A stretch of 20,000 nucleotides of DNA, from the IMG/VR virus record IMGVR_UViG_3300031669_000019. The stretch is one strand, 5' to 3'. Numbering within the stretch: position 1 is the stretch's first letter; every line of letters starts with the position of its first letter. A program made the translations under genes and the position numbers. The notes under the pieces were generated by a model. That model worked only from the letters and a program-made list of their open reading frames with translations. It did not search any database and had not been told where the DNA came from. This document shows positions 1,257 through 17,362 of the stretch, one piece after another. This DNA comes from an uncultured virus (IMG/VR IMGVR_UViG_3300031669_000019). Taxonomy: Duplodnaviria > Heunggongvirae > Uroviricota > Caudoviricetes.

Positions 1257-1592
1257 TTAAATACGTTTTCTATATTTTCCATTTGAATCTACATTGATTA
1301 CTTTCCAGCCTTCTTTATAAATATCCTCAATAAACAATTCATCAAAACGCTCGGCGCGATGAATCCAACAATTATATAGCCAAGCTATTCCTCCATCCTC
1401 CAACGTTATTCTTCCCAATAAAGTTTTTTTATTCAAAGCCAATTTTTTTAATTTTTTAATGCTATTAGGGCATTCATACAACCCATCAAATTTGCCATAA
1501 CCGACAAAATAAATTTTGTGCTTTTTCTCGTCTATTTTATTCAACACTACAGCTACCCGTTCGCCAGGTTCAATTGGATTTACCATATTCAT
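1257..1592 (-). CDS. Hypothetical protein
   Basis: 111-aa ORF, ATGA-coupled to the upstream permease, co-oriented. Confidence 0.7.
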   Translation of the reverse strand: MNMVNPIEPGERVAVVLNKIDEKKHKIYFVGYGKFDGLYECPNSIKKLKKLALNKKTLLGRITLEDGGIAWLYNCWIHRAERFDELFIEDIYKEGWKVINVDSNGKYRKRI

Positions 1593-2401
1593 TCTTTTAT
1601 TGCTCCACCAATACTATCTATGAAATATTTATTTGCCAAAATAAAAATAATCAATAATGGAATTAATAAAATCACGCCAACGGCTAACGTTCTACCAATT
1701 GGATTTACACCCCGATCACCACCGCCGCGAAGCATAGCGAACCGCATTAATCCAACTAATAATGTTTGCCGCTCCGGTATTTGTAAAACTAACGCCTGCC
1801 AAATATAATCTTGTAAAGCGCTAATAGCAGCGAATACCGATAATACGGCAATAATAGGTTTAGATATTGGCATTACTATTTTTCTTAGTACTAAAAATTC
1901 CGAAGCACCGTCAAGCCGCGCCGATTCCAACAACGATATAGGCACAGTTTCAAAATAATTCCTAGCTAAATATAATCCGATAGGGGAAAAAACTATTGGC
2001 AATATCGTAGCTAATAACGTTCCAGACAAACCTAATTTTTTTATTACTACATATAAAGGAATTATAAACGATATACGCGGAACCATTAAACCTAATAATA
2101 AGCAGCCCCATAATAGTTTTTTAAATCTAAATTTATAAAAAGCAAAAACATATCCGCCACAACTGGAAATAAATACTGATAATATTACCGTAGAAACCGT
2201 AACTATTATTGAATTTCCTAGCCACCGAACAAAATCCAATTTAAATATTGTTTGATAATTATATAAAGTACTATTAGTAGGAATCAATTGTGGCGGCATT
2301 TTCATTACGCCGTGGGTATCTTGAAATGAACCTATAACCATAAAATAAATAGGTAGCATCATTATAATAAAAAATAATATTAGAAATATTTTTTTAATCA
2401 T
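1589..2401 (-). CDS. Carbohydrate ABC transporter permease (MalG/UgpE-like)
   Basis: Several hydrophobic segments, EAA loop LLESARLDGASEF, GYVFAFYKFRFK. Confidence 0.92.
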   Translation of the reverse strand: MIKKIFLILFFIIMMLPIYFMVIGSFQDTHGVMKMPPQLIPTNSTLYNYQTIFKLDFVRWLGNSIIVTVSTVILSVFISSCGGYVFAFYKFRFKKLLWGCLLLGLMVPRISFIIPLYVVIKKLGLSGTLLATILPIVFSPIGLYLARNYFETVPISLLESARLDGASEFLVLRKIVMPISKPIIAVLSVFAAISALQDYIWQALVLQIPERQTLLVGLMRFAMLRGGGDRGVNPIGRTLAVGVILLIPLLIIFILANKYFIDSIGGAIKE

Positions 2402-2825
2402 CGCTACTACTAATAAAAAAATTAGGAAATATGCCCATATATTTTTCTACAAAACAAGAAAAATTTTGAATAACAGCCCTGGGATCAACCTTATCCAAAT
2501 CTATTTTATATAAATCATTGTAGCGCCAATCTCCCTTTTTATACCATTCTTCATTTTTTGATAAAGCGAAAGTTTTATCTTGTAATTTTTGATCTGGATC
2601 GCTTGAAGCTAAAAAACCTTGCACTAAGCAATCGCATAAATCACGCATCGTTATGCCTTTTACTTCTTGCGCGCCGCGCTGACCAGAATCAGTCCACGGT
2701 TGCCCATTATAAGGGCGCTCCCTAGAATTATCCCAAGATGTACTGCCATCTATAGCATCTAATTCAAATTCTAATTTTTTAATTAAGTCTTTATCATTAC
2801 CATCTAACATTGGAATTTCGTTCAT
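2394..2825 (-). CDS. Hypothetical soluble protein lying between the two permease genes
   Basis: 143-aa ORF overlapping both neighbours; hydrophilic; no Walker motifs. Confidence 0.75.
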   Translation of the reverse strand: MNEIPMLDGNDKDLIKKLEFELDAIDGSTSWDNSRERPYNGQPWTDSGQRGAQEVKGITMRDLCDCLVQGFLASSDPDQKLQDKTFALSKNEEWYKKGDWRYNDLYKIDLDKVDPRAVIQNFSCFVEKYMGIFPNFFISSSDD

Positions 2826-3640
2826 TTTTCCACCTTCTTTTTTATCAACGATAATACCAAAATTATAATTAATAGTATAACCGCTTCTGCCGAGGCGATT
2901 CCATATTTACTAAACATAAAACCTGTTTGATATATTTTAAACGTAATAGTAGTGGCAAACGTTTGTGGCGCCAACGCATATATATTCTCGAAAATTTGGA
3001 AAGCATTTATAGCCGATAATAAACCAATCAAAACAATTACTGGGGATATTATCGGAACTATTATTTGCCATTTTATTTGATGCTCACTTGCTCCATCAAT
3101 CATAGCCGCTTCCAAAATTCCTTTATCGATTGACAATATAGCCGCCAATAAAATAATCAAATTTGAACCAAAAGAGGAAAAAATAACAATAAATGAAATT
3201 ATTGGAATAGCCGTTATGCCTTGTGCAAACCAATTTACAGCTTCTATATTGAATATTGATAACAACCAATTGATTGGTCCATCAATATGAAAAATCCATT
3301 TCCAAGAACCGGCAATTATTATGCCTGCCGATAAAACCGGAACATATAAAATAATCCTGGAAATATCTTGCCAGCGTTTATTTAAAGAATAAATAGAAAG
3401 TGCCGTAAACAACGCGGCTAGTATTTGACCAGGAACCAATATCAGCGCATAAAAAATACTATTTATTATCGATTGTAAAAAATCTGGATCAGTCAAAGCA
3501 TATATATAATTATCCAACCCAACAAATTTAGTCGTGATGAAATTAGTTTTATATAAAGAAAGCTTTACCACTTCTGCCAATGGCCAAATCGTGAACATTC
3601 CATAGAATCCGACCACCAACAGAAGCAGTAAATTTTTCAT
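2822..3640 (-). CDS. Carbohydrate ABC transporter permease (MalF/UgpA-like)
   Basis: FVGLDNY motif, EAA loop ILEAAMIDGASEHQ, YGIASA, transmembrane segments. Confidence 0.92.
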   Translation of the reverse strand: MKNLLLLLVVGFYGMFTIWPLAEVVKLSLYKTNFITTKFVGLDNYIYALTDPDFLQSIINSIFYALILVPGQILAALFTALSIYSLNKRWQDISRIILYVPVLSAGIIIAGSWKWIFHIDGPINWLLSIFNIEAVNWFAQGITAIPIISFIVIFSSFGSNLIILLAAILSIDKGILEAAMIDGASEHQIKWQIIVPIISPVIVLIGLLSAINAFQIFENIYALAPQTFATTITFKIYQTGFMFSKYGIASAEAVILLIIILVLSLIKKKVEK

Positions 3641-3646
3641 CTTACT

Positions 3647-4096
3647 TTAAAAAACCATTTCAGCCGTTATTGTTATCGGACTCGAATTATCAGCAAGTCC
3701 GGCAAAATCATACTCGACTGTAATGGTTGTAAACGGGAGCCCATTGACAACCAGCGCCGCAGGAAGCGTAAAAGCAAATATATCAATAAAATTAAACGTT
3801 GGCGTCACATAAATTTCCAGCGGGCCAACTACATAATCGACCTTCTGCGAAATAGATGCAGAAAGCAGTTCCGGGAGAAGAACATCCAGCGAAGCGTCTA
3901 TTGTGGTAACAGTAGTAAACGCCCCAAGCGTCAACGTTGCGCTAGCATTGGGATTTGCTTCAAACGTTACCAGTCCACCATCAGGTTCAACAGTCGCGAC
4001 ATACGTGGAATCACTGGCAAAAACCATGCCATCATCGGCAAAAGCAATTGCTCCCATTGAAAGCATTACGCACATGACAAACAGAAATTTCTTCAT
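3647..4096 (-). CDS. Secreted protein, possible small outer-membrane beta-barrel
   Basis: Signal peptide MKKFLFVMCVMLSMGAIAFA, beta-strand-like alternating residues, C-terminal Phe (ITITAEMVF); RBS AAGGAG. Confidence 0.55.
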   Translation of the reverse strand: MKKFLFVMCVMLSMGAIAFADDGMVFASDSTYVATVEPDGGLVTFEANPNASATLTLGAFTTVTTIDASLDVLLPELLSASISQKVDYVVGPLEIYVTPTFNFIDIFAFTLPAALVVNGLPFTTITVEYDFAGLADNSSPITITAEMVF

Positions 4097-4117
4097 ACAA
4101 ACTCCTTGAAAATTTTG

Positions 4118-4346
4118 TATTACGGCCTACGGCCTTATAATTACTTTATCAACTTCTTGATCTGCTTCAGCTGAACCTCGTCAGCCTTGCCAATCAGCTT
4201 CATTTTTCCCTCGCCATCAAGCGTGTATAGTGAAACAATTTCACCGTTTGTAGGCTCGGGTGCTTCTTTTACAACAACATCAGTTTTCTTCATGTAAATT
4301 CCTTAGAAAGAATATATTACAGCCCTACGGCTTTATAATTACTTTA
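4118..4346 (-). repeat. Imperfect ~31-nt direct repeat (4118-4148 and 4315-4346), each with a small GC hairpin just after a stop codon
   Basis: tattacggcctacggccttataattacttta versus tattacagccctacggctttataattacttta. Confidence 0.7.
4141..4293 (-). CDS. Small hypothetical protein (50 aa)
   Basis: Manual translation MKKTDVVVKEAPEPTNGEIVSLYTLDGEGKMKLIGKADEVQLKQIKKLIK; RBS-like AAGGA upstream; below the ORF-track cutoff. Confidence 0.6.
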   Translation of the reverse strand: MKKTDVVVKEAPEPTNGEIVSLYTLDGEGKMKLIGKADEVQLKQIKKLIK

Positions 4347-5601
4347 CCGCTGAGAGCTTTTTCTGATATAATTTAATCGCATCTTCTGGTGTCATCTTGA
4401 AATTCAGTACCTGCTGAAGAATTGGGAACTGCAAAGCACGGCGCTCTGTAAATCGAGGATCTGTAATGCCAACATCCTGCAAACCGTTAGCAGCTACAAT
4501 TGCCATGATCTCCTTGGTATGAGGATCGCTCGGGCCATAAATTGCATCAGAACGATTCGGAATAACGGAAACCAGTTTTGCCAATTCACCCTGAATCCGC
4601 GCTCCATTCATATACTCAACCAATCGTGCAGTGACAATATCTTTTTCCGTGCCGCTATTATAAACAACCATAGCACCATTGGTATAATAAGTCGGAACCT
4701 TTTTAACTCCGGGTGTGCGTGGAAATGGCACAAACGTATAATTGAATGGCTTCTCAATCTGTTTCTGCGTAATAGCGGATTTGAAATATGGCCCTGTCCA
4801 ATCCTGGAAAAAAGCCGTTGCCGCCAAATTACCGGACTGCCACAAAACTGCGTAATCATCATCGGTGAGTGTAGCCGATGATGCAGGAATATACCCGGCT
4901 TTCATCAACTGCTGGAAAAAACTGTATACCTGCGCTCCGCCAGTATCGGCAATCACTGATTTGTCATACCCGGCGCCAGGTTTATAAAAACTAACACCAA
5001 ATGATGCAAACCACGCATTGATAAGATAATCCCCTGACTGATTGGCAGCGAACATTCCGGTGGCGTATTTCTTCCCACCATAAAATTTCTTTACCTTTTC
5101 TGCCATAACCAAGAAATCATCAACGGTCCAATCCTTCGGAACAGTATATTCTATTTCCGTCATCATATCGAGATTCACCAGCATCGCTTGTGCAGAACCT
5201 GGGCCGGGCATAGCTAGAAGCTTCCCATCCTTGCGGTAAGCATCAAATACACCAGGATTGTATTTTGATAAATCCCTTATATATTTATCAAGCGGCAAAG
5301 CATATTCTGGAATTATATATTTGCTAGCGCGGACCATCGAGTCAATATATAGATTCGGAGCGGTACCGGCAGCAAGCATAGCGTCCATCGTCAAGGTAGA
5401 ACCATCGGATAAATCTACTTTTGCCCAAGTAATTTTTACATCGGGGAAATCCTTTTTGAGCATGGTTTCCGCAATGGTAAAAAGCGTAGTATCACCTAGT
5501 ACAGTATCACCCGTATGGAGCACAGTTATTGAAACCGGCTCCGCGAAAGAACTGAAAATAGTACACGCAATCATCAGCATGAACATCAGAAATTTCTTCA
5601 T
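4339..5601 (-). CDS. ABC transporter extracellular solute-binding protein (family 1, sugar-type)
   Basis: Signal peptide, 420 aa, LAAGTAPNL, ALPLDKYI, DGKLLAMP, WTVDDF motifs; next to sugar permeases; RBS AGGAGG. Confidence 0.88.
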   Translation of the reverse strand: MKKFLMFMLMIACTIFSSFAEPVSITVLHTGDTVLGDTTLFTIAETMLKKDFPDVKITWAKVDLSDGSTLTMDAMLAAGTAPNLYIDSMVRASKYIIPEYALPLDKYIRDLSKYNPGVFDAYRKDGKLLAMPGPGSAQAMLVNLDMMTEIEYTVPKDWTVDDFLVMAEKVKKFYGGKKYATGMFAANQSGDYLINAWFASFGVSFYKPGAGYDKSVIADTGGAQVYSFFQQLMKAGYIPASSATLTDDDYAVLWQSGNLAATAFFQDWTGPYFKSAITQKQIEKPFNYTFVPFPRTPGVKKVPTYYTNGAMVVYNSGTEKDIVTARLVEYMNGARIQGELAKLVSVIPNRSDAIYGPSDPHTKEIMAIVAANGLQDVGITDPRFTERRALQFPILQQVLNFKMTPEDAIKLYQKKLSAVK

Positions 5602-5855
5602 ACAATAACCTCCTGATTTTCCTTTACAAATTTACCACCCGAAATAATATTGATATAAACCGACTCATCACCAAAATACTTGTTCTTACTGACATAATCG
5701 CCAACAAAAGCGATCTCGTTGGCAATCAAAATAGCATGTCCATATCCAGAAACTTCTACCGCTTTGCCCCGCGCCCACGAAGCAATATCATCAATATTAT
5801 CTTCATGAATACAACGTGCTTCAAATAAAGCATCCTTGTTGCAATACATTGGCAT
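5598..5855 (-). CDS. Hypothetical phage-type protein
   Basis: 85 aa, strong RBS AAGGAGG, coupled to the binding-protein gene. Confidence 0.7.
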   Translation of the reverse strand: MPMYCNKDALFEARCIHEDNIDDIASWARGKAVEVSGYGHAILIANEIAFVGDYVSKNKYFGDESVYINIISGGKFVKENQEVIV

Positions 5856-5874: not shown

Positions 5875-5973
5875 TTAGTGGACTATGGCAAATAAAATAA
5901 GCATATAAACAGCACCGAAAAGAAAGCCAATAAAAAATTTATTTTTTTGATCTGGCGTCCAATAGCTTTTCAT
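5875..5973 (-). CDS. Small membrane peptide (32 aa)
   Basis: Manual translation MKSYWTPDQKNKFFIGFLFGAVYMLILFAIVH; ATGA overlap with the upstream stop; fills the gap. Confidence 0.45.
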   Translation of the reverse strand: MKSYWTPDQKNKFFIGFLFGAVYMLILFAIVH

Positions 5974-6599
5974 TCACTGCTCCTTTCTACAACTTTGGAA
6001 ATGCCAGTAGCTTTATTTTGTGAAACTTCAAATATTTTATCCGCTATGGAAATTATTTCATCATTGTTTACCGAATTAGAACTGATTATAAATTGTAAAT
6101 TCAATTTTTTAGACAAGCGCTTTATTATTTCAAATCCACGCATCTGCAATTCTTTTGGTTGTAGCCATTTCAACGGCTCATCCAATATCAGAACGTTATC
6201 GGTATGCCCGAGACTCCATGCTGATATGCGCAACGCGAAAGCGGCCAAATCAATAAACCCACCCCCGCTTCCAGTCATTGGATCAATTTCAATTCCATTC
6301 TTGAAAAACAACAATTGTGCTTCCGTCCGCCCGTATTTTATTTTGAAATCAATGTCAAACGTATAAATATCTGGGAAGCAAGTATCAAGCGCCAACTGCA
6401 CCAAATCAATTATATTGAATTTCAACTGCTCTTGTGTATCCTTGGCAACCATTTGAATAAATGTTTGAGCCTCTTCCAACGCAATAGTACGTTTAGACAA
6501 CTTAACAAGCTGCACATCCAGATTTGCTTTTTGTTCTTGTAAAGTTTCAACTTTTCCTTTCAATTTATTCAAACGATCTTTATATATTTGTACGCTCAT
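5970..6599 (-). CDS. SbcC/Rad50-like ATPase, C-terminal half (coiled coil, signature, Walker B)
   Basis: N-terminal coiled coil, GSGGG signature-like motif, VLILDEP Walker B, IISSN at the H-loop position; no Walker A. Confidence 0.8.
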   Translation of the reverse strand: MSVQIYKDRLNKLKGKVETLQEQKANLDVQLVKLSKRTIALEEAQTFIQMVAKDTQEQLKFNIIDLVQLALDTCFPDIYTFDIDFKIKYGRTEAQLLFFKNGIEIDPMTGSGGGFIDLAAFALRISAWSLGHTDNVLILDEPLKWLQPKELQMRGFEIIKRLSKKLNLQFIISSNSVNNDEIISIADKIFEVSQNKATGISKVVERSSE

Positions 6600-6841
6600 T
6601 CAACATCATCCCAATCCGTTATTTTTTCCAACGTGTTATATAATTTTTCGAGCTTCTTTTTATCCTCTTCAATTCCAGATTCTAATTCAGTTACTTTTTC
6701 GCTTGCCTCTTCAATAGAATTTATGCCATAATCGCGTTTCCATTGCTCTTCTATTTTAGCCTTTGCACCTTCGGCGCGGGCTTTCTTTTCTTTGGCGGTT
6801 TCTATTTTTTCCTTGATTGCCTGGAATTCTCTGGGTGTCAT
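6596..6841 (-). CDS. Small coiled-coil protein (likely start MTPREFQ at 6841)
   Basis: RBS GGAG before ATG at 6841; Glu/Lys-rich heptads. Confidence 0.7.
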   Translation of the reverse strand: MTPREFQAIKEKIETAKEKKARAEGAKAKIEEQWKRDYGINSIEEASEKVTELESGIEEDKKKLEKLYNTLEKITDWDDVE

Positions 6842-7038
6842 TTTACAATCTCCATAATAGATGACTTGGCACAATTTTTACAAACAAGCCTATGCTTGTT
6901 TCCAATAAATATTCTACCACAAATAGTGCACTTACAATGATAATTTCCATTTTCTTGTTTTGTGTCTTCTTCCCAATCATATTTAGAATAGAAAGTTTCA
7001 AAAGGGCTAATTATTACTTGTGATTCTCTGGGTGTCAT
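6838..7038 (-). CDS. Small Cys-rich (zinc-finger-like) protein (likely start MTPRESQ at 7038)
   Basis: CxCxxC...CxxC pattern; RBS GGGAG before ATG at 7038. Confidence 0.6.
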   Translation of the reverse strand: MTPRESQVIISPFETFYSKYDWEEDTKQENGNYHCKCTICGRIFIGNKHRLVCKNCAKSSIMEIVK

Positions 7039-7040
7039 AA

Positions 7041-7235
7041 TTATTTTCTCCCATATATAATCAATATAATACCAGAACTTATCGGCCAAAATACAATGCA
7101 AAACAATAAAATAATAATTAAACTGACATCTTTTTTAACAAGTTTGAATCTGGCATCAACCAGGATAGCTCCAAAAATGATTCCGGCAATAAAAAAATAT
7201 GTGCTGAATATACAAATCCATATGGAATTACTCAT
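7041..7235 (-). CDS. Small two-TM membrane protein
   Basis: Two hydrophobic segments, overlapping start/stop with its neighbour. Confidence 0.6.
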   Translation of the reverse strand: MSNSIWICIFSTYFFIAGIIFGAILVDARFKLVKKDVSLIIILLFCIVFWPISSGIILIIYGRK

Positions 7236-7410
7236 CTGCTTTTATCTCTTTGTCGATTATCCGCAATACGTCATCTATGAACATTATTTTTCCGGTTTTA
7301 TCCAATTGAAATAAATCGGTATCTTTATTAAAAGAATATCTGTCAGCTTCATTTATTTTTTTAATGAGTTTTTTTGCTTTTATATACTTGCTTTTTGCTA
7401 CGTCATTCAT
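7228..7410 (-). CDS. Hypothetical protein
   Basis: 60 aa, overlaps both neighbours, RBS GGAG. Confidence 0.6.
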   Translation of the reverse strand: MNDVAKSKYIKAKKLIKKINEADRYSFNKDTDLFQLDKTGKIMFIDDVLRIIDKEIKADE

Positions 7411-8290
7411 TTGAATTCTCCATCAATTCCCGTATTTCTTTTATCGTAGCCTTGCTCAAATTATTGTTTTTTTCCAAAGCCACATTTATATTGTCAATAA
7501 ACGACAAACTTATTTTTCCGCTTTTCTTCACGCCTTCCACAAATGCTCCAACTCTATTCTCTCGCTCTTCCTCTATTTTTATATAGCTATCATCTACCAA
7601 TTTTATATTGACATCCGGCAATTCTATTTCTTCAACAATATTCTTTTCCGTGTCTACATAATATATTATAGGTTTGTAATCGATGAAATCCGAAGCCTGC
7701 CTGATAATACAACCGGGATTTACAACGTGCCGCCCTTTTTTCTCGTAATGGAAATGCTTGTGCATATCGCCAGTAAAGATCCATTTGGCGTTTGGGAATT
7801 CATTCAACAAATCTTGCGCCGTGCAAGCCTTCACATTCGGTGGCAACGATTTCAAATTCTCGAACACCAACCGGTGAAGAAATTGTATTTCTTGATCAGG
7901 ACTTTCTGGCTCTTCATTAAAATGCGCCCAAGAACCTAAATCATCAAAATATTTTATCTTGTCACCAATGATTGAATTAACTATTCCAAACGATGAACTA
8001 TTAACATTCTCCCACGAATGATATGGCAAATCATGGTTGCCAGCCAAAAGCCTTACGCCTTTTTTGACTTGCAACATATAGCGCAAAAACATGGCAGTAA
8101 TATAATTAGGAACATTAGGACTTTCTTTCCCAAATACATCGCCAATTATACTCAACAAACAATTTCTTTTATTTGCTTCTTCAACAATAAATTTAATGGT
8201 TGCTTCCTGAAATCCCAACCAATCGTCATCGATTCGACAGCGTGGTCTATCCGGCCTTAAATGTAGATCGGCAGTTATTATACTTTTCAT
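7403..8290 (-). CDS. SbcD/Mre11-like metallophosphoesterase nuclease
   Basis: ADLHL, GDVF, GNHD, H, GDMHKH, NPG motifs of the calcineurin-like phosphoesterase fold; adjacent to the SbcC-like ATPase. Confidence 0.9.
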   Translation of the reverse strand: MKSIITADLHLRPDRPRCRIDDDWLGFQEATIKFIVEEANKRNCLLSIIGDVFGKESPNVPNYITAMFLRYMLQVKKGVRLLAGNHDLPYHSWENVNSSSFGIVNSIIGDKIKYFDDLGSWAHFNEEPESPDQEIQFLHRLVFENLKSLPPNVKACTAQDLLNEFPNAKWIFTGDMHKHFHYEKKGRHVVNPGCIIRQASDFIDYKPIIYYVDTEKNIVEEIELPDVNIKLVDDSYIKIEEERENRVGAFVEGVKKSGKISLSFIDNINVALEKNNNLSKATIKEIRELMENSNE

Positions 8291-9372
8291 ATTTTATTCC
8301 TAACATAGGGACATGCATCTACATAGGGGCACACATCTGGCAATAATTCCATATTATCTTTTATTTCCTGTTTAGATTCTTTTATCGTATCATTATTATC
8401 ATTATAGCTGGAAACCATATCAGTAATGGTTTCCAATTTCTTAACCCTGTTGAAAATATCTATTCGCAAATAATCAATAGAATTTACCAAAGTGCCTAGT
8501 TTAATAAAATCCACCGTGGCGGTTTTTTTGTTATTGGCATTCCAATCAGAAATACTTTCTGACAATTGCTGGCAAGTATTTTCCTTTGCCTTCAATTCAA
8601 GTTGGGCCACATCGATTTTTTTTATTGTTGCCACGGCAGATAAAATAGCATCGTTTTTTGTAATTATTTTATCATAGGAACCGATTTGGTTTTTTAAATT
8701 ATTTATTGTTTCTATAGACTCGTTATTGTCATCAATCCGTTTTTCCAGTTTATCAATTTTATTGACAAGCTCCTCTGCTTCGGGTAAATAATTAAAATTT
8801 TCTAATTCGCCTGCAACGTCATGTAAAGAAATTTCTGCTTGCTTTTTTTCTGCGTTATTTTCTCTTCGTTTCGTTTCTGCCTTACTAAGAACCTTATCAA
8901 TTAAATCTAACCTAATTATATTATTAAAATATTTAGCAACATCACCGGCGCTCTTCGATAGTAAGAACGGGGAATCAAGCTGCATTTGAATATTAGTTTC
9001 GTCTATATTTAATATAGAAGGGATTTCTTCTGGAATATCCATTCCAACGGCTTCAAGTATTTTAGGCTCTTCCAATTCCGGAATAAATATTTTATAGCCA
9101 TTCATAGAATCAGATTTAATACGCTTAATTATATTAGTATCGTTTTCTATAGCAACTGAGGTGGCTTTGATAGGTTTATTTTTATTATCACGATTCCAGT
9201 TGGATATATAGGAATCACCGTTAGGCCGATTAAATCGCGCCCAATAAATGGATCTGAGCAACGAAGTTTTGCCGGAATCCGTATCACCGACAATTATATT
9301 TATTCCTGGGTCGAACTGCAGTATTGTTTTTTTGTGGGATTGAAAATTATGTATGGATAAAGACTTGATCAA
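8287..9372 (-). CDS. SbcC/Rad50-like ATPase, N-terminal half (Walker A, coiled coil, Cys pair)
   Basis: IHNFQSH, GINIIVGDTDSGKTS Walker A, Q-loop, coiled coil ending VCPYVDACPY; no Walker B; TTG start with RBS AAGGAG. Confidence 0.85.
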   Translation of the reverse strand: MIKSLSIHNFQSHKKTILQFDPGINIIVGDTDSGKTSLLRSIYWARFNRPNGDSYISNWNRDNKNKPIKATSVAIENDTNIIKRIKSDSMNGYKIFIPELEEPKILEAVGMDIPEEIPSILNIDETNIQMQLDSPFLLSKSAGDVAKYFNNIIRLDLIDKVLSKAETKRRENNAEKKQAEISLHDVAGELENFNYLPEAEELVNKIDKLEKRIDDNNESIETINNLKNQIGSYDKIITKNDAILSAVATIKKIDVAQLELKAKENTCQQLSESISDWNANNKKTATVDFIKLGTLVNSIDYLRIDIFNRVKKLETITDMVSSYNDNNDTIKESKQEIKDNMELLPDVCPYVDACPYVRNKI

Positions 9373-9462
9373 AAATTTCTCCTTACCGATTACGGTTTAG
9401 GTTCCGTGCATAAAAAGTATAACACAGAAATAGTGTTTATGCTAGTATGCGAAAATGTTATA

Positions 9463-9771
9463 TTATTTTTTATAAGCAGAGCAGAATTCACACACGTTGA
9501 ATTGTTTGCTGCTCATTTTGTGGCAGTGTGGGCATTCTTCTTCGGTGGAAGTGAATTTCAATTCAGCGGAATAATTTGATTTTTCTTCTATTAAGCTTAC
9601 AGGAGGTTTATTTTTCTTTATTTGTACCAAGGCGCCATAAATTGAAATGACAAGAAAAACGATAAACCAGATGAATGTTCCGAGCAAGCCGCTGCCGGAA
9701 ACCAAGGAAATTAGAGCCGCAAAAAACCAAAGAACGATAAGAACGAATGGAAGCAAAACAATATACACCAT
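9463..9771 (-). CDS. Membrane protein with C-terminal zinc ribbon
   Basis: Two TM segments and CPHC...CEFC; RBS AAGGAG. Confidence 0.7.
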   Translation of the reverse strand: MVYIVLLPFVLIVLWFFAALISLVSGSGLLGTFIWFIVFLVISIYGALVQIKKNKPPVSLIEEKSNYSAELKFTSTEEECPHCHKMSSKQFNVCEFCSAYKK

Positions 9772-9800
9772 GATTGTTCTCCTTTATGCAGAAATATCTT

Positions 9801-9818
9801 ACATATATATTATAGAAA
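9801..9818 (-). promoter_or_regulatory. Conserved promoter -10 motif TTTCTATAATATATATGT
   Basis: Identical 18-mer at 11364-11381; contains TATAAT; about 30 nt upstream of a start codon. Confidence 0.65.
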
Positions 9819-9839
9819 CTGCTAAATTGTTTTTTAATT

Positions 9840-9871
9840 AAAAGTAGGCGCTTAATTTAATAAGCACCCAC
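9840..9871 (-). terminator. Rho-independent terminator closing the RAMP/array unit
   Basis: Minus-strand RNA GUGGGUGCUUA-UUAAAU-UAAGCGCCUAC-UUUU: an 11-bp stem whose two G-U pairs form only on the minus strand. Confidence 0.75.
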
Positions 9872-9877
9872 GCACCT

Positions 9878-10004
9878 ACCTGCCGAACCATAACACACCA
9901 GAACCAACCACACCGTGCCGGGACCAGCCACACCGAACCTGCCAAACCTTGCCATGCCCCACCAAACCACGCCTTACCCCACGGAGCCTCACCCCGCCTG
10001 CCAA
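9878..10004 (-). repeat. GGY-NN pentamer array A: two 59-nt units delimited by GGCAGG; putative guide-RNA array
   Basis: CCTGCC (+) at 9879, 9938 and 9997, spaced 59 and 59; between them 11 in-register RCC-NN pentamers per unit (a few variant triplets). Confidence 0.85.
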
Positions 10005-10014
10005 GTTATATATT

Positions 10015-10518
10015 TTAAGCAAAAATAGTTTCATGAACCTTCTTTAATTTGGTATGGGCTTTCTGGAATATCTTATCCAAATAAGAATAATCACGCGCCA
10101 TGTTTTCGGCTTCCATTACTGTCGAAGATAACCGATTCATGACTTGCTGTTTCAATTCAGGATCAGACATGACTTCCATTACCGGCTTATATGTCATAAT
10201 CCTATTATCTTCATCCTCACCATCTAATCGAACAGATTCCAAAGCCCGAACTACCACAGAAACGGAATTACCTTTTTCATCTGCCCCGGCTATAGTGACA
10301 ACAAGAGTGCGCATGATTTGGCGGGCTTGCTCTATACGGTGCAACTCACCAGCAATTGAATCATCCCATTCAAAACATTTATACAGTTCGCTATTTTTAT
10401 TTTTTCTAGCTATCTGCACAACTTTGGGCGCTTCTTTATTTTCTATCTTTTCTAGCTCCTCGCCGACCTTCTGAGCATCGGCAAATATTCTGTTTCCCTT
10501 CTTCCAATCGTATACCAT
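10015..10518 (-). CDS. Accessory protein of the RAMP/array locus, function unknown
   Basis: 167 aa between the two arrays, RBS AAGGAG, motif SELYKCFEWDDSIAGELHRIEQARQIMR. Confidence 0.8.
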   Translation of the reverse strand: MVYDWKKGNRIFADAQKVGEELEKIENKEAPKVVQIARKNKNSELYKCFEWDDSIAGELHRIEQARQIMRTLVVTIAGADEKGNSVSVVVRALESVRLDGEDEDNRIMTYKPVMEVMSDPELKQQVMNRLSSTVMEAENMARDYSYLDKIFQKAHTKLKKVHETIFA

Positions 10519-10544
10519 ACTTTTCTCCTTATATAAAATTTATA

Positions 10545-10685
10545 ACCTAGCCTGCCCAACCATGCCTCACCAGGCCGCACCTCACCTTACCAAGCCGCAC
10601 CTCGCCTAACCCGTCCCCGCCTGCCAAACATACCTCACCGCACCCAGCCATACCTCGCCTCACCCAACCATGCCTTACCTGCCAA
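10545..10685 (-). repeat. GGY-NN pentamer array B: 58- and 69-nt units delimited by GGCAGG; putative guide-RNA array
   Basis: CCTGCC (+) at 10551, 10620 and 10678; 13 pentamers in one unit, 11 in the other (one with a 1-nt deletion). Confidence 0.85.
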
Positions 10686-10696
10686 ATAATTTTTAT

Positions 10697-11317
10697 TTAC
10701 TTCTTAGCTCGCTTTACCGGTATATTATCGGCATCGGTAGCTACGTGGAACATTCCATAGCTACCATCCTTTTCTGGACGCCATTCTCCAACGCCAACGC
10801 CGAACCCGGCCTGATTAAAAAGATTGACTATTTGCTCCAAGCTTATTTTATCGGCATTATAACGGATAGGTATGCTTGCGCGCCACTTCTTAAATTCCGG
10901 GCGATAGCGGATATCAGCCGTTCCCATACCCACGCGCACCATATCTTCCCGCATATTGGGTTTTCCTAATATGGGAACTAATTCACACGGTATATGAAAA
11001 GCGCCGCGCACTTCCGTCATCTTCATACCTTCGCAAAAACGCCCTGCGGCGCTTACAGCAGACGCCTTAAAACCGATAGCGGGAAAACCGGGTGTGCCAT
11101 CTTCAAGCCGATAAAAGGCTTCTTCATAATCACGCTGTGGATCTTTCGCTTGCTGAGCGCCCTTGGCCTTTTTCATCTGCTTATCCAGCATGCCCCTTTT
11201 TACTTTTTCTGACCATGCGTGAACGATTAGTGGGGAATCGCCTACCAATTCAATCGTAGCCAGTTGAATATTGATTTTCTTCAATTCAATCACTTGCACT
11301 TCAACAGACTTCTTCAT
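10697..11317 (-). CDS. RAMP / Cas7-like RNA-binding protein
   Basis: Likely start ATG 11317 after GGAGG. First strand IELVGDSPLIVH, GFPAIGFKASAVSA helix, and C-terminal Gly-rich loop AGFGVGVGEWRPEKDGSYGMFHV, as in RAMP (Cas7/Csm3-like) folds. Recognised by eye. Confidence 0.7.
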   Translation of the reverse strand: MKKSVEVQVIELKKINIQLATIELVGDSPLIVHAWSEKVKRGMLDKQMKKAKGAQQAKDPQRDYEEAFYRLEDGTPGFPAIGFKASAVSAAGRFCEGMKMTEVRGAFHIPCELVPILGKPNMREDMVRVGMGTADIRYRPEFKKWRASIPIRYNADKISLEQIVNLFNQAGFGVGVGEWRPEKDGSYGMFHVATDADNIPVKRAKK

Positions 11318-11363
11318 AAAAGAGACCTCCAAATAAAAAACATAATAAACGTCCTAAGCGTTC

Positions 11364-11381
11364 ACATATATATTATAGAAA
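11364..11381 (-). promoter_or_regulatory. Promoter -10 motif driving the RAMP/array unit
   Basis: TTTCTATAATATATATGT, about 47 nt upstream of the RAMP ATG; the motif recurs elsewhere in the window. Confidence 0.65.
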
Positions 11382-11505
11382 TTGTTTTACAATTTAACGG
11401 TTTTTTAGAAACAAATAGAATAATTTGTTTTTTCAACCTTTTCTATAGGAACCATTTATAAAAAACTAAATCGTTCAATTTGTTCTATAATATTGTTTGT
11501 ACAAA

Positions 11506-11550
11506 CCCTCTATACATTTTTTGTATAGAGGGCTCTATACATTTTTTGTA
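11506..11550. repeat. Palindrome plus direct repeat, candidate origin or operator
   Basis: CCCTCTATACA-TTTTT-TGTATAGAGGG inverted repeat (11506-11532); CTCTATACATTTTTTGTA at 11508 and 11533. Confidence 0.6.
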
Positions 11551-11640
11551 GAGATATATAAGATATAATACGTTATTAAAAATAAGACTTTATTACATAA
11601 AGTCAAGCAACCTGCGGTTGAATCACAATTTTTCGACTAC

Positions 11641-11669
11641 TTTACAGAATAATTCACGTGTGTTATACT
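11641..11669 (+). promoter_or_regulatory. Sigma70-type promoter for the rightward rep-like gene
   Basis: TTTACA, 17-nt spacer, TATACT with extended -10 TG. Confidence 0.7.
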
Positions 11670-11716
11670 TGATATGCTAGGAAAAGAATTTGGCCGTTCC
11701 AACCTGGTATTGACAG

Positions 11717-11823
11717 ACTACGGATTCAATCAAGTCCCTATAGACGGGTTGCTGATTAAATCCTTTTTCCGTAGTGAGGATTTATAGTCAGGGCCACAAC
11801 CCGTCTATAGGGATTTTCTTTTT
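11717..11823 (+). ncRNA. Structured 5' leader / attenuator-like RNA
   Basis: Perfect 17-bp stem 11735-11751 with 11797-11813, an inner stem, and a U-rich tail directly before the RBS; loop TCCGTAGT is complementary to ACTACGGA at 11717. Confidence 0.6.
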
Positions 11824-11833
11824 CGGAGGAACT

Positions 11834-13069
11834 ATGACAAATATTATCGCTTTCCGTTGTAATCAAAAGGCAAAAATAAAATATAACCTAAATAGTGACG
11901 ACCTGGTTTTTCTGGACTGGATGAAAGGTTTTGCTTCAAACATAAAAATAAAAAAAATAATGAATGATGAAGAACATTTTTTCTGGATAAAATATTCCAA
12001 GGTACTGGAAGATTTGCCAAGCATTTTCATCAATGTACTTTCTATCCGCAGACGAATAGCCAAACTATCGGCAAATAATCACGCTGCCATGAAGCCTTTA
12101 ATTTCTAAATTAGTTGCAACCAGTCACGGTGTAGAAACTTATTTTGCTTTCAATCCTGTTGTGATGGATGAATTGGAGGGTAATTCAATGAGCGGGTTCG
12201 ATGATGAATTGGGCTTGACCAAACTGAAATCCAAAATAAAGGAATCCAATTATAAAAAAATACCAGTAAATAAAAACGTGCAATTCATATTTGAACGGAT
12301 AAAAAAATTCAGCGTCAACGATAAAGAATTATTCCCACACGCCAGCCCGCTCGATGATCACCACTATTCCAAAACATTCGCACAATTCCAGGAAGCCCTT
12401 TACAGTTTATACGAAGGCAAATTCTTGACTAATTATTCTTTCAATACTTTTGAGGAATGGTTTCAGTTAAAATATAAATATTACTTACAAAAAGATAAAA
12501 TAATAGAAAATATAAAAGCGTGCAAAGGCGATTGGGAAGCTATAAGAAAATTATTAGTTAAAGCTATTAAAAACTATATTAAATGGTTTGATTCCGAATC
12601 GGAACAACGCGATAAATCAAAACTGCCTAGGAATATAAATGCTTTTATTTACGATAGGTTTAATCATTTATCTATGTTTTATGTTTGCTTGATCGAAGGC
12701 CCGACTGACTTACGCGAGGCAGAAGCAGAAAAAACGTTTGATACTATATTACCAAATTATAGAAAGATAGCATTAAAAATATATGACAAGAGCTTCGATG
12801 GCTTCCTTTTCTGGAATAAAATAAAATCCGTGTTACAATGGTATAAAAAATATTCAAAGGAACTATCCAATTCAAATGACGGTTGCTATTATTGGCTATC
12901 GATTGGATGTGAAGAATTTTTAGCGGATTATATTTCGTGGCTTTATGCGTTTACTGATGAAGCCCCGTTTATAAATAATATCGGTATCAATAATTTAACC
13001 TGGAAGACATTCATAAAAGAAAAGAAAACTAAACATGCTATCTATATCGATATCCCTTTAACACTTTGA
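11834..13069 (+). CDS. Putative phage replication initiator (N-terminal winged-helix-like domain)
   Basis: Likely start ATG 11834 after GGAGGA. The N-terminus (LNSDDLVFLDW...FFWIKYSKVLEDLP...IRRRIAKL) resembles phage replisome-organiser wHTH domains; function is inferred. Confidence 0.5.
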   Translation: MTNIIAFRCNQKAKIKYNLNSDDLVFLDWMKGFASNIKIKKIMNDEEHFFWIKYSKVLEDLPSIFINVLSIRRRIAKLSANNHAAMKPLISKLVATSHGVETYFAFNPVVMDELEGNSMSGFDDELGLTKLKSKIKESNYKKIPVNKNVQFIFERIKKFSVNDKELFPHASPLDDHHYSKTFAQFQEALYSLYEGKFLTNYSFNTFEEWFQLKYKYYLQKDKIIENIKACKGDWEAIRKLLVKAIKNYIKWFDSESEQRDKSKLPRNINAFIYDRFNHLSMFYVCLIEGPTDLREAEAEKTFDTILPNYRKIALKIYDKSFDGFLFWNKIKSVLQWYKKYSKELSNSNDGCYYWLSIGCEEFLADYISWLYAFTDEAPFINNIGINNLTWKTFIKEKKTKHAIYIDIPLTL

Positions 13070-14721: not shown

Positions 14722-15015
14722 ATGAGCCGCCCAAAAGGTTTTAAATTATCTGATGACCAGAAAGCCAAAATGCAAGCCGGGCGGCTCCTGAGAAGAGAAA
14801 AAGCCCACGAAGGCTTGATTGATGATGAACCTATAATAAAATATAATAAAAAAACTTCCTTTGTCATTGGGTATGGCTGGTCAAAAAGCGATACGCTAGT
14901 ATTCCCCATATTCAAATCTGAAACTGATATTTATAAGCGTAAAATATACCTTACAGTGGAAAAAGCACGCGAAGCGCTAGACAGATTTTTATCAAAGGAG
15001 CATATAAATGCTTGA
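14722..15015 (+). CDS. Hypothetical protein with a basic N-terminus (possible DNA-binding)
   Basis: RBS AAGGAG; RPKGFKLSDDQKAKM is reminiscent of NUMOD3-like motifs. Confidence 0.65.
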   Translation: MSRPKGFKLSDDQKAKMQAGRLLRREKAHEGLIDDEPIIKYNKKTSFVIGYGWSKSDTLVFPIFKSETDIYKRKIYLTVEKAREALDRFLSKEHINA

Positions 15016-15589
15016 TTCAAATGCTATGTTCAAACAATATCGCCGAATGATCGAAGGTGCTGCGTGGAAAGCTACAAAACATTATCACATTGACATTGAA
15101 GAAACACGCTCGCAAGTTTATTTAATATTCTGCGAAGCATTGGAACGATTTGACGAAAGTAAAAATTGCCAATTTGGTACTTTTCTTTTCAACAGACTTA
15201 GAACGATTTTCGATTATTGTTCTCAAGAAAGAAAAAATATTCATATATCTTTATCACCGAAAGATAATAAATATAATGAAAATGATTTCGATACAAAAGC
15301 GAATATAAATATTTATGCCATTGAAGCACGACAATACCAAGAATTTACCCAAGCGCTAGACCGACTGGAAACCGGCTTGGACTTATCGGAAGATGCGCAA
15401 GAAATCCTGGATTTCATCATCAGTCGCGTTTGGGAAGTGCCTGGCGCAACAAAAAAGCTGCTCCCGCGTTTCCATCCCACGATGTTATATTATACTAAAT
15501 CGGAAGGCTGGAAGCTCGCTCGCGTAAAAGCAGCTTGGGAAGAAATAAAAACGTGGTGGCTAGCCGATAACCATTTACAGGTAATATAA
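15008..15589 (+). CDS. Sigma-70 region-2-like protein (phage sigma-like factor)
   Basis: QYRRMIEGAAWK...IDIEETRSQVYLIFCEALERFDESKNCQFGTFLFNRLR follows the sigma region 2 pattern; RBS AAGGAG. Confidence 0.65.
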   Translation: MLDSNAMFKQYRRMIEGAAWKATKHYHIDIEETRSQVYLIFCEALERFDESKNCQFGTFLFNRLRTIFDYCSQERKNIHISLSPKDNKYNENDFDTKANINIYAIEARQYQEFTQALDRLETGLDLSEDAQEILDFIISRVWEVPGATKKLLPRFHPTMLYYTKSEGWKLARVKAAWEEIKTWWLADNHLQVI

Positions 15590-16070: not shown

Positions 16071-16121
16071 AATCGTTTTCTATAATATCTATGTATCTAT
16101 TTTAATTTTAAGGAGCATTTT

Positions 16122-16964
16122 ATGTGCGATTTCGTATCATGGATTTCTGTTGGTAGGAAACTCTATTGGCTTGAGGATGACATGATCGAAGCCAAAGGTT
16201 GGGATTTTGAAAATTCCATCGGGCATTCCGCCATAGAAAAATATTATGGTATTACTGGAATACATAAAGAGGGTTGGAGAAAAATACCAATTCAAATTGC
16301 AAGAAGCGTAAATTCTGGCCACATGGATAAAATGGCTAAATCTTATGGATTAGCCGGGGTACGCTATAATAATAAAGGATCTATAAATAGTCCTTGGTGG
16401 TTGAATGCACGAAAATTCATCAATAGTATAAAAGATGTAAAATGGTTTGATAATCATGGTGCGATAAAAGAAAATTGGAAAGTTTTTGATACTTATTCAG
16501 CCGCAAGGTCAGCCACAAGGTCAGCCACAAGGTCAGTCGCATGGTCAGCCGCAAGGTCAGCCACAGAGTCAGCCGCAAGGTCAGCCACATGGTCAGCCAC
16601 AAGGTCAGTCGCATGGTCAGCCGCAAGGTCAGCCGCAGAGTCAGCCGCAGAGTCAGCCGCATGGTCAGCCGCAAGGTTAGCCACATGGTCAGCCGCATGG
16701 TCAGCCACAAGGTCAGCCGCATGGTCAGCCACAAGGTCAGCCGCAGAGTCAGCCACAAGGTCAGCCACAGAGTCAGCCGCATGGTCAGCCACAGAGTCAG
16801 CCACAGAGTCAGCCGCATGGTCAGCCGCATGGTCAGCCGCAGCTATAATATCTGAGGATAAAACAGCTATAGATTTCTTTATGCATGTATGGGAAATATG
16901 GAAATCGGGTTATGGATATATGTGGGATAAAGACGGTATTTTTTACGTTTATAAAAGTTTTTAA
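16122..16964 (+). CDS. Phage-type protein with S-A-(A/T)-(W/R/E) tetrapeptide repeats
   Basis: RBS AAGGAG, promoter motif at 16077-16094, unique N- and C-terminal domains flanking the repeats. Confidence 0.8.
   Translation: MCDFVSWISVGRKLYWLEDDMIEAKGWDFENSIGHSAIEKYYGITGIHKEGWRKIPIQIARSVNSGHMDKMAKSYGLAGVRYNNKGSINSPWWLNARKFINSIKDVKWFDNHGAIKENWKVFDTYSAARSATRSATRSVAWSAARSATESAARSATWSATRSVAWSAARSAAESAAESAAWSAARLATWSAAWSATRSAAWSATRSAAESATRSATESAAWSATESATESAAWSAAWSAAAIISEDKTAIDFFMHVWEIWKSGYGYMWDKDGIFYVYKSF
16497..16844 (+). repeat. Coding tandem repeat, 29 x 12 nt (TCAGCCRCA-AGG/TGG/GAG)
   Basis: Counted from the translation SAAR SATR ... SAAA. Confidence 0.95.
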
Positions 16965-17339: not shown

Positions 17340-17346
17340 AAATAAA

Positions 17347-17362
17347 TCTATAATATATATGT
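17347..17362 (+). promoter_or_regulatory. Conserved promoter -10 motif TCTATAATATATATGT
   Basis: Same motif as at 9801 and 11364 (minus strand) and 16077 (plus strand, one mismatch). Confidence 0.65.

Follow-up and report, generated by a model that had tools for sequence, protein, structure and literature searches.

VIPR systems, described in a group of 2026 preprints, are built around Vipr, a RAMP protein that binds one GGY/NN repeat per subunit, recognises double-stranded DNA with a 1-nt skip and represses transcription, and the available text of these preprints also reports guides aimed at rival vipr genes (bioRxiv 10.64898/2026.04.26.720920; 10.64898/2026.04.26.720927; 10.64898/2026.10.15.759431; 10.64898/2026.10.21.760802). 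Seven VIPR types have been distinguished, of which types II, VI and VII carry DNA-binding vaps, and the legend of Fig. S18 in the same source describes staggered arrays with a 1-nt overlap, drawn as processed units (bioRxiv 10.64898/2026.04.26.720920). As far as the available text of the preprints goes, the mechanistic work all concerns tailed type II systems, for which filament assembly, a triplex R-loop, repression and an anti-satellite function have been published (10.64898/2026.04.26.720927; 10.64898/2026.10.15.759431).

Here we describe a VIPR cassette in the window, by which we mean the whole 20,000-nt stretch analysed, part of a 67,752-bp contig. Its viral location is indicated by phage-type primase, sigma factor and exonuclease families and by 251 IMG/VR matches; no virion genes lie inside the 20 kb. 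The original prediction had noted a resemblance to viral VIPR-type systems, and rightly: homology to SUSP1 Vipr, the fold and the arrays mark the cassette as VIPR. The novelty that it implied did not hold, as VIPR and the staggered layout are already in print; with vipr-targeting guides also known from the 2026 preprints, the window is a new copy. New here are the polymorphism of the cassette in soil runs and computed skip-code evidence in a tail-less clade. The predicted layout of one minus-strand unit, from promoter motif to terminator, was recovered with all its parts, listed here by window position and strand.

9819..11482 (-): the complete VIPR cassette, in place of which a co-occurring sister allele has 20 other bases
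11364..11381 (-): putative promoter, an 18-nt motif with TATAAT box, with copies before other phage genes
11326..11330 (-): ribosome-binding site GGAGG predicted from sequence, 8 nt ahead of the ATG at 11317
10697..11317 (-): vipr, 206 aa, RAMP (Cas7/Csm3-like) fold, from SUSP1 Vipr homology, fold model and conserved residues
10916..10948 (-): thumb codons EDMVRVGMGTA in vipr, a perfect 1-nt-skip match to foreign guides of loci L189 (22/22) and L010 (16/16)
10683-10552 (-): array B, units B1 and B2
10626..10683 (-): guide unit B1, 58 nt, 10 perfect GGY-NN pentamers (10679-10630) and a 4-nt remnant
10552..10625 (-): guide unit B2, with 13 pentamers over the 69 nt from junction to junction and a closing GGCAG
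10015..10518 (-): vap, 167 aa, from co-occurrence and homology, with no named fold
10002-9880 (-): array A, units A1 and A2
9944..10002 (-): guide unit A1, 59 nt, 11 pentamers
9880..9943 (-): guide unit A2, with 11 pentamers (3 GTY) over the 59 nt from junction to junction and a closing GGCAG
9840..9871 (-): intrinsic terminator-like hairpin (9844-9871, 11 pairs, fold z -3.8) and T tract
9801..9818 (-): second, exact promoter copy outside the cassette, bounding the empty site on one side
11483..11491 (+): divergent TTCTATAAT promoter-like box, forming the other edge of the empty site

Cassette anatomy and proteins

The 18-nt motif ahead of vipr recurs exactly at 9801-9818 and as near copies at 16077-16094 and 17345-17362 (chance mean 0.16 matches), and is probably a phage-wide promoter. 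It is also present at about 13500, and the phage has its own gene for a sigma-70 region 2 protein at 15008-15589. The arrays have 64% GC against 36% outside the cassette, in keeping with the GC-rich arrays in an AT-rich genome that had been predicted, and a 52-codon ORF overlapping array A (9876-10034) shows no sign of being a gene. Also as predicted for the window, a Pfam scan of its 35 ORFs found no cas families, and the listed repeat families held no repeat-spacer array. Rfam and tRNA searches gave no match.

When the 206-aa protein was searched with phmmer against 177,635 distinct PDB sequences, the sole match at E<=1 was the Vipr of Escherichia phage SUSP1 (36pp, E 7.2e-6), and a 107-sequence profile matched residues 4-190 of that chain at E 1.2e-13. 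An AlphaFold2 model (pLDDT 94.7) gave 68 Foldseek matches at E<=0.001, headed by Csm3/Cas7/Cmr subunits (E 1.3e-6), and a second structural comparison with Csm3/Cas7-type subunits yielded Z 11.4 and rmsd 3.9 over 148 aligned positions. Model and homology together support a RAMP fold with RRM, thumb and G-loop, much as had been proposed for 10697-11317. In SUSP1, the residues H17, R138, D177, W178 and R179 read G1, G2 and Y3, according to the accessible part of the preprint (bioRxiv 10.64898/2026.04.26.720927). Their counterparts in the window Vipr, with their conservation in a 107-row alignment, are H33 (H in 96 rows), R139 (R in all 107), E178 (E or D in 106), W179 (W in 86) and R180 (R in all 107); judged by this alignment, the putative GGY-binding residues are kept.

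The proposal that one protomer binds each GGY-NN pentamer, with specificity in the NN positions, agrees with the available text of the VIPR cryo-EM preprint (bioRxiv 10.64898/2026.04.26.720927); the 1-nt skip rule for dsDNA targets had not been part of it. Vipr has an RRM core, a thumb and a glycine-rich loop in common with the class 1 CRISPR-Cas backbone proteins Csm3, Cas7 and Cmr4. However, identity to these is 9-13%, the window is without Cas5, Cas6, Cas10, Cas3, Cas1, Cas2 and a repeat-spacer array, and the class 1 period is 6 nt with contiguous pairing, whereas that of VIPR is 5 nt with non-contiguous pairing.

The model of the 167-aa Vap is likewise confident (pLDDT 95.5), and its family includes Gordonia phage ODay gp20 and Mycobacterium phage Donkeykong gp50 (profile E 2e-36 and 3e-31). 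Foldseek found nothing in the PDB at E<=0.001, the best VIA result (Z 7.8) covered the C-terminal helices only, and the Atlas and BFVD searches returned matches only to unnamed phage proteins. These fold searches used the whole chain, and the N-terminal part may hold an HTH-like domain. A profile of 77 vap sequences gave E 0.29 against the SUSP1-type vap1 of ESCO50 (gene 63, taken as vap1 by synteny) and E 1 against LESphi2 gene 8; the 167-aa Vap is not detectably homologous in sequence to SUSP1-type vap1. Pfam, PADLOC and NCBIfam have a name for neither Vipr nor Vap.

Staggered arrays, relatives and VIPR type

The regular alternation of a fixed GGY triplet with a variable dinucleotide, one of the claims of the original prediction, stands out clearly against shuffled sequence. 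The best 60-nt frame holds 12/12 in-phase GGY in array B and 11/12 in array A, a phasing reached by none of 2000 dinucleotide shuffles per array (maximum 7); on the plus strand, no part of the window has more than 4. Degenerate triplets occur in A2 (three GTY for GGY), A1 (one CGT) and B2 (one GGA). GGCAGG lies at 10683, 10625 and 10556 in array B and at 10002, 9943 and 9884 in array A. It had been said to cut the arrays into 58-69-nt units; the lengths stood (58, 69, 59 and 59 nt), but there is no separate spacer, the terminal GGCAG overlapping the next tract by 1 nt. More precisely, GGCAG closes each unit and its last G is also the first G of the next tract, which is why units measure 59 or 69 nt (5n-1). 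The guides are tail-less: units abut with nothing in between, and four of them fit within about 260 nt.

VIPR arrays are defined by intergenic same-strand tracts of 9-16 GGY/NN repeats, of which the window has 10, 13, 11 and 11, and in the staggered form by successive guides overlapping by 1 nt, reflected here in units of 59, 59 and 69 nt and one of 58. The staggered vrRNA arrays of Fig. S18 (bioRxiv 10.64898/2026.04.26.720920) are like the window cassette in vipr and vap, in GGY/NN tracts of 10-13 units, in the 1-nt guide overlap, in viral context and in having no cas genes, and no architectural difference was found between them.

Homologous loci were drawn from IMG/VR as the 80 best of 251 matches, not dereplicated, and 71 of these 80 carry a same-strand array near vipr, so that arrays and homologs do co-occur, as had been anticipated. 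Among the nine array-less loci, five end within 700 nt of vipr and four have full flanks and no array at the threshold used. The description of vipr as a stand-alone gene has to be given up: vap travels with it, being found in 74/80 vipr loci, and vipr in 74/79 vap-fetched loci, with some contigs common to both sets. The commonest gene order is vipr-vap-array (53 of 74 loci); the window's order, vipr-array-vap-array, occurs in 6 of the 74, plus one with an extra upstream array. Across homologous loci, 171 of 186 adjacent tract pairs have an offset of -1, 153 of those 171 after GGCAG, and the GGCAG -1 junction is therefore a conserved feature of the clade. It is also the best candidate for a processing site; the text of the preprint on staggered arrays makes no statement of junction motif, targets or processing for them (bioRxiv 10.64898/2026.04.26.720920).

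Two cultured phages fall in the same Vipr clade through unannotated loci, Gordonia phage ODay (gp19/gp20) and Mycobacterium phage Donkeykong (gp49/gp50), with profile E-values of 3e-72 and 1e-66. They have the same vap family and GGCAG-joined arrays, but their Vipr identity to the window is about 41-43% and their guides are different. As cultured phages, they offer testable models for the tail-less clade. In Donkeykong (L109, 1486-1872), gp48, annotated as a 128-aa hypothetical protein, coincides with a guide array and is probably not a gene.

According to the available text on type II VIPR of SUSP1 and a P. fulva prophage (PDB 36pp; 10.64898/2026.04.26.720927; 10.64898/2026.10.15.759431), these systems are like the window cassette and its clade in homologous Vipr, GGY-binding residues, a wobble-skipping code, anti-rival-vipr guides and loss of the locus in relatives. 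The same text has SUSP1 relatives keeping solo guides, whereas the window's sister allele is without arrays too. Type II further differs in a structured 3' tail of ~40 nt after each tract, seen also behind the ESCO50 tracts and absent from the window units. In a 40-row tree of chosen rows, the Vipr of ESCO50 and that of LESphi2 are set apart on a long branch of their own (100/100); branches are long, and only the separation is used. Because it has no guide tail, because the vap profile misses ESCO50 vap1 and because the ESCO50 and LESphi2 Vipr form a distant branch, the window cassette is, on sequence grounds, not type II. By the published text description of vaps it would be type VI or VII, since a non-nuclease vap other than vap1 points there. 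The locus stands for a large clade, with 4003 50%-cluster representatives of the Vipr family at E<=0.001, and the available text of the VIPR preprints holds no experiments on its tail-less members.

Guide targets and the skip code

Guides of the clade, defined as GGCAG-bracketed with 8-15 dinucleotides, were scanned against array-masked loci. For 138 guides on 1.5 Mb, matches of at least 90% numbered four with skip 1 and zero with skips 0, 2 and 3 and with a shuffle. For 155 guides on 3.1 Mb, there were again four with skip 1, against 0, 1 and 3 with the other skips and 3 and 3 in shuffles, while the 63 guides seen only in the second set gave three with skip 1, against 0, 0 and 1 with other skips and 0 and 1 in shuffles. 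Against whole loci, the skip-rule signal is thin; it is clearer in the location of the matches. Against non-self vipr and vap genes, five of 218 clade guides match at 90% or better, all of them sense with the wobble base skipped; none of the 218 does so in the other five strand/frame classes or on its own vipr or vap, and only one reaches its own genes even at 80%. On the own genes that they spare, clade guides score 13/16, 16/22 and 17/24.

The strongest case falls on the window itself, at the thumb codons listed above. The L189 guide is perfect on 69 of 155 vipr genes but scores 16/22 on L189's own vipr, and a rough chance figure for its 22/22 match is 4e-5 (uniform bases, 218 guides, 3.1 Mb). 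L189 and L010 are closely related and share a degenerate unit, the L010 guide being the shorter form, so the two anti-vipr guides are counted as one event. Guides of other phages are predicted to target the window's vipr. By these matches, which come from few guides, the 1-nt-skip, wobble-skipping code appears to extend from published type II to the tail-less clade.

Arrays of five further loci (L075, L048, L033, L134 and L052) hold guides that match the vap or vipr of rivals, and also a DPPY motif, typical of DNA methyltransferases. The own vap of L075 encodes the same ten residues by other codon families, scoring 15/20 against 19/20 on the rival.

For the window's own guides, scans used exact 1-nt-skip cores, which real targets with mismatches escape, and they gave chance-level matches only, with no convincing target for A1, A2, B1 or B2. 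B1 matched no loci, B2 matched 18 in viral contigs (best 22/28), A1 seven of four kinds (best 20/22), and A2 zero and seven in two scans (best 18/22). Fetched homologous loci matched at shuffle level or below 85%, vipr/vap genes and listed sister-strain variants gave no match, and at most five dinucleotides were in common with any other guide. Three candidates were dropped. A single metagenomic locus for B2 (23/26), in a methyltransferase-like gene on a 71% GC chromosomal contig, was rejected with about one chance match expected; an antisense, wobble-aligned A1 match on a Bro-N/ANT antirepressor gene was not accepted, with 2/4 unselected bases matching, the same as in an unrelated match; and the idea that B2 spells the RYxxLxE motif of Vap failed.

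Within the 20-kb window, nothing was found for A1, B1 and B2. Guide A2 has a near-match of 16/22 at 9675-9643 (-), sense and in frame on codons 33-43 of the next gene downstream, a score matched by 0.7% of 2000 order-shuffles over 33 ORFs (~0.03 after four guides, post hoc). No better-matching allele of the site was found, the sole 90%-cluster relative of the adjacent gene being identical there, and we treat the match as a lead only.

A polymorphic cassette and its possible role

Logan contigs of three soil runs (X1-X3), which may be one campaign and the origin of the window's DNA, were compared over 8800-12300. X1 had the cassette-bearing form only. X2 and X3 each showed a bubble, in which a unitig spanning 9729-11512 runs parallel to a 140-nt unitig joining 9818 to 11483 (1664 skipped, 20 other bases). 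Depths of the two branches are roughly additive, at 38.7 + 80.4 in X2 (flanks 115 and 112) and 114.9 + 98.1 in X3 (flanks 198 and 181). The empty joint has 30 letters on its short side at 85% likeness, but the points at which the two unitigs diverge coincide. The SbcC-like gene contains a second bubble, whose similar depth ratios suggest two co-occurring strains, and a 129-nt patch (9044-9172) with 16 positions different in the sister strain. A promoter-like box flanks the empty site on either side, the two standing back to back, and the presence/absence difference fits gain and loss of the cassette alike. Array variants were absent among those listed in the three runs. Such cassette-bearing and cassette-free forms, side by side in soil, offer a natural comparison for what VIPR protects against. 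Over 9917-11191, these runs also have loose ends, where other contigs match briefly and carry GGY-like repeats or pieces resembling vipr; they suggest further VIPR elements in the same soils.

Our preferred reading, to which we give a probability of roughly 90%, is a phage-borne VIPR cassette with staggered, tail-less guide arrays, whose one-promoter transcript is cut into four guides and which serves as an optional weapon against rival elements. Going by the anatomy, a single promoter would serve the whole run of vipr, array B, vap and array A, with transcription ending at the terminator, and cleavage of this RNA at its GGCAG junctions would release four guides of about 58-69 nt. Vipr would then polymerise with one subunit per pentamer, GGY buried and NN displayed, and the filament would bind dsDNA with two bases paired and then one skipped, blocking transcription without cutting; both steps are in print for SUSP1 and P. 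fulva and are carried over here. Vap would be a non-nuclease helper, and phages that have the cassette would use it against competing phages, satellites or rival VIPR loci. Four tail-less guides in so short a stretch would lend themselves to multiplexed repression, provided that their processing also works in a new host. We would add, as a doubtful extension, that the GGCAG register slip could be a built-in processing signal read by Vipr or Vap, with two small proteins maturing and using a multi-guide array without Cas6 or a ribozyme, and that the cassette could move as a unit between sister phages at the promoter-flanked site, in a VIPR-against-VIPR arms race on conserved thumb codons.

Three other readings were weighed, all of them very unlikely. 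The least improbable is that the arrays stay uncut, as one long RNA with several out-of-register filaments, or that RNA is targeted as by Csm3. No processing nuclease is evident at the locus, array folding is unremarkable (z -0.9 and -0.4), and among solved structures in the libraries searched, type III Csm3/Cmr subunits come nearest in fold; those libraries, however, did not return the SUSP1 Vipr entry, which was found by sequence search. Moreover, the conserved GGCAG -1 junction agrees with the staggered arrays in print, whose units are drawn as processed (720920, Fig. S18 legend), and SUSP1 Vipr on ssRNA forms mostly incomplete filaments, according to the available preprint text (bioRxiv 10.64898/2026.04.26.720927). 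A smaller chance goes to the same VIPR complex mainly regulating the phage's own or host genes, such as the neighbouring membrane-protein gene. This would give meaning to the in-frame A2 match in the adjacent gene, but 16/22 is just the level at which clade guides score on spared own genes, own vipr and vap are almost never reached at 80% (1/218 guides), and the other three guides have nothing in the window, which covers 20 kb of the about 68-kb contig.

Least probable of all is a decaying or orphan relic, a GC-rich repeat without guide function. The 3/11 degenerate triplets of A2, the shortened last unit of B1, a sister allele without the cassette and the lack of targets found would suit such a relic. 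Both ORFs are nevertheless intact with conserved residues kept, similar degeneracy occurs in guides with perfect targets (L189), and the three runs list no array variants, all of which speaks against a relic.

Several neighbouring genes deserve mention in their own right. On the minus strand, 1589-5601 encodes an ABC transporter set, made up of two PF00528 permeases and a PF01547 solute-binding protein; an ATPase to go with them was not seen in the window. The set has 181 homologues at E<=1e-20, several of them on 40-105-kb contigs and none in the IMG/VR scan, and may be a phage-borne clade of sugar transporters. A cytidylyltransferase (PF02348; 357-1244, minus strand) adjoins these genes and has a possible role in surface-glycan modification. 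An SbcCD/Rad50-like nuclease lies in pieces over 5970-9372 (-), with the N-terminal ATPase at 8287-9372, the phosphoesterase at 7403-8290 and the C-terminal half at 5970-6599. The strand switch before a 431-aa gene holds a tandem 22-nt repeat pair and a 20-nt inverted repeat (11508-11554 and 11732-11816), a possible operator or replication origin. At 16425-16904 (+), a 12-nt tandem repeat encodes SAAW/SATR tetrapeptides in a 280-aa protein, one cluster member of which is 8 aa shorter. Finally, a 149-aa gene and the solute-binding gene (3647-4148 and 4324-5605) have near-identical 5' ends and upstream 23-nt repeats, suggesting a leader duplication.
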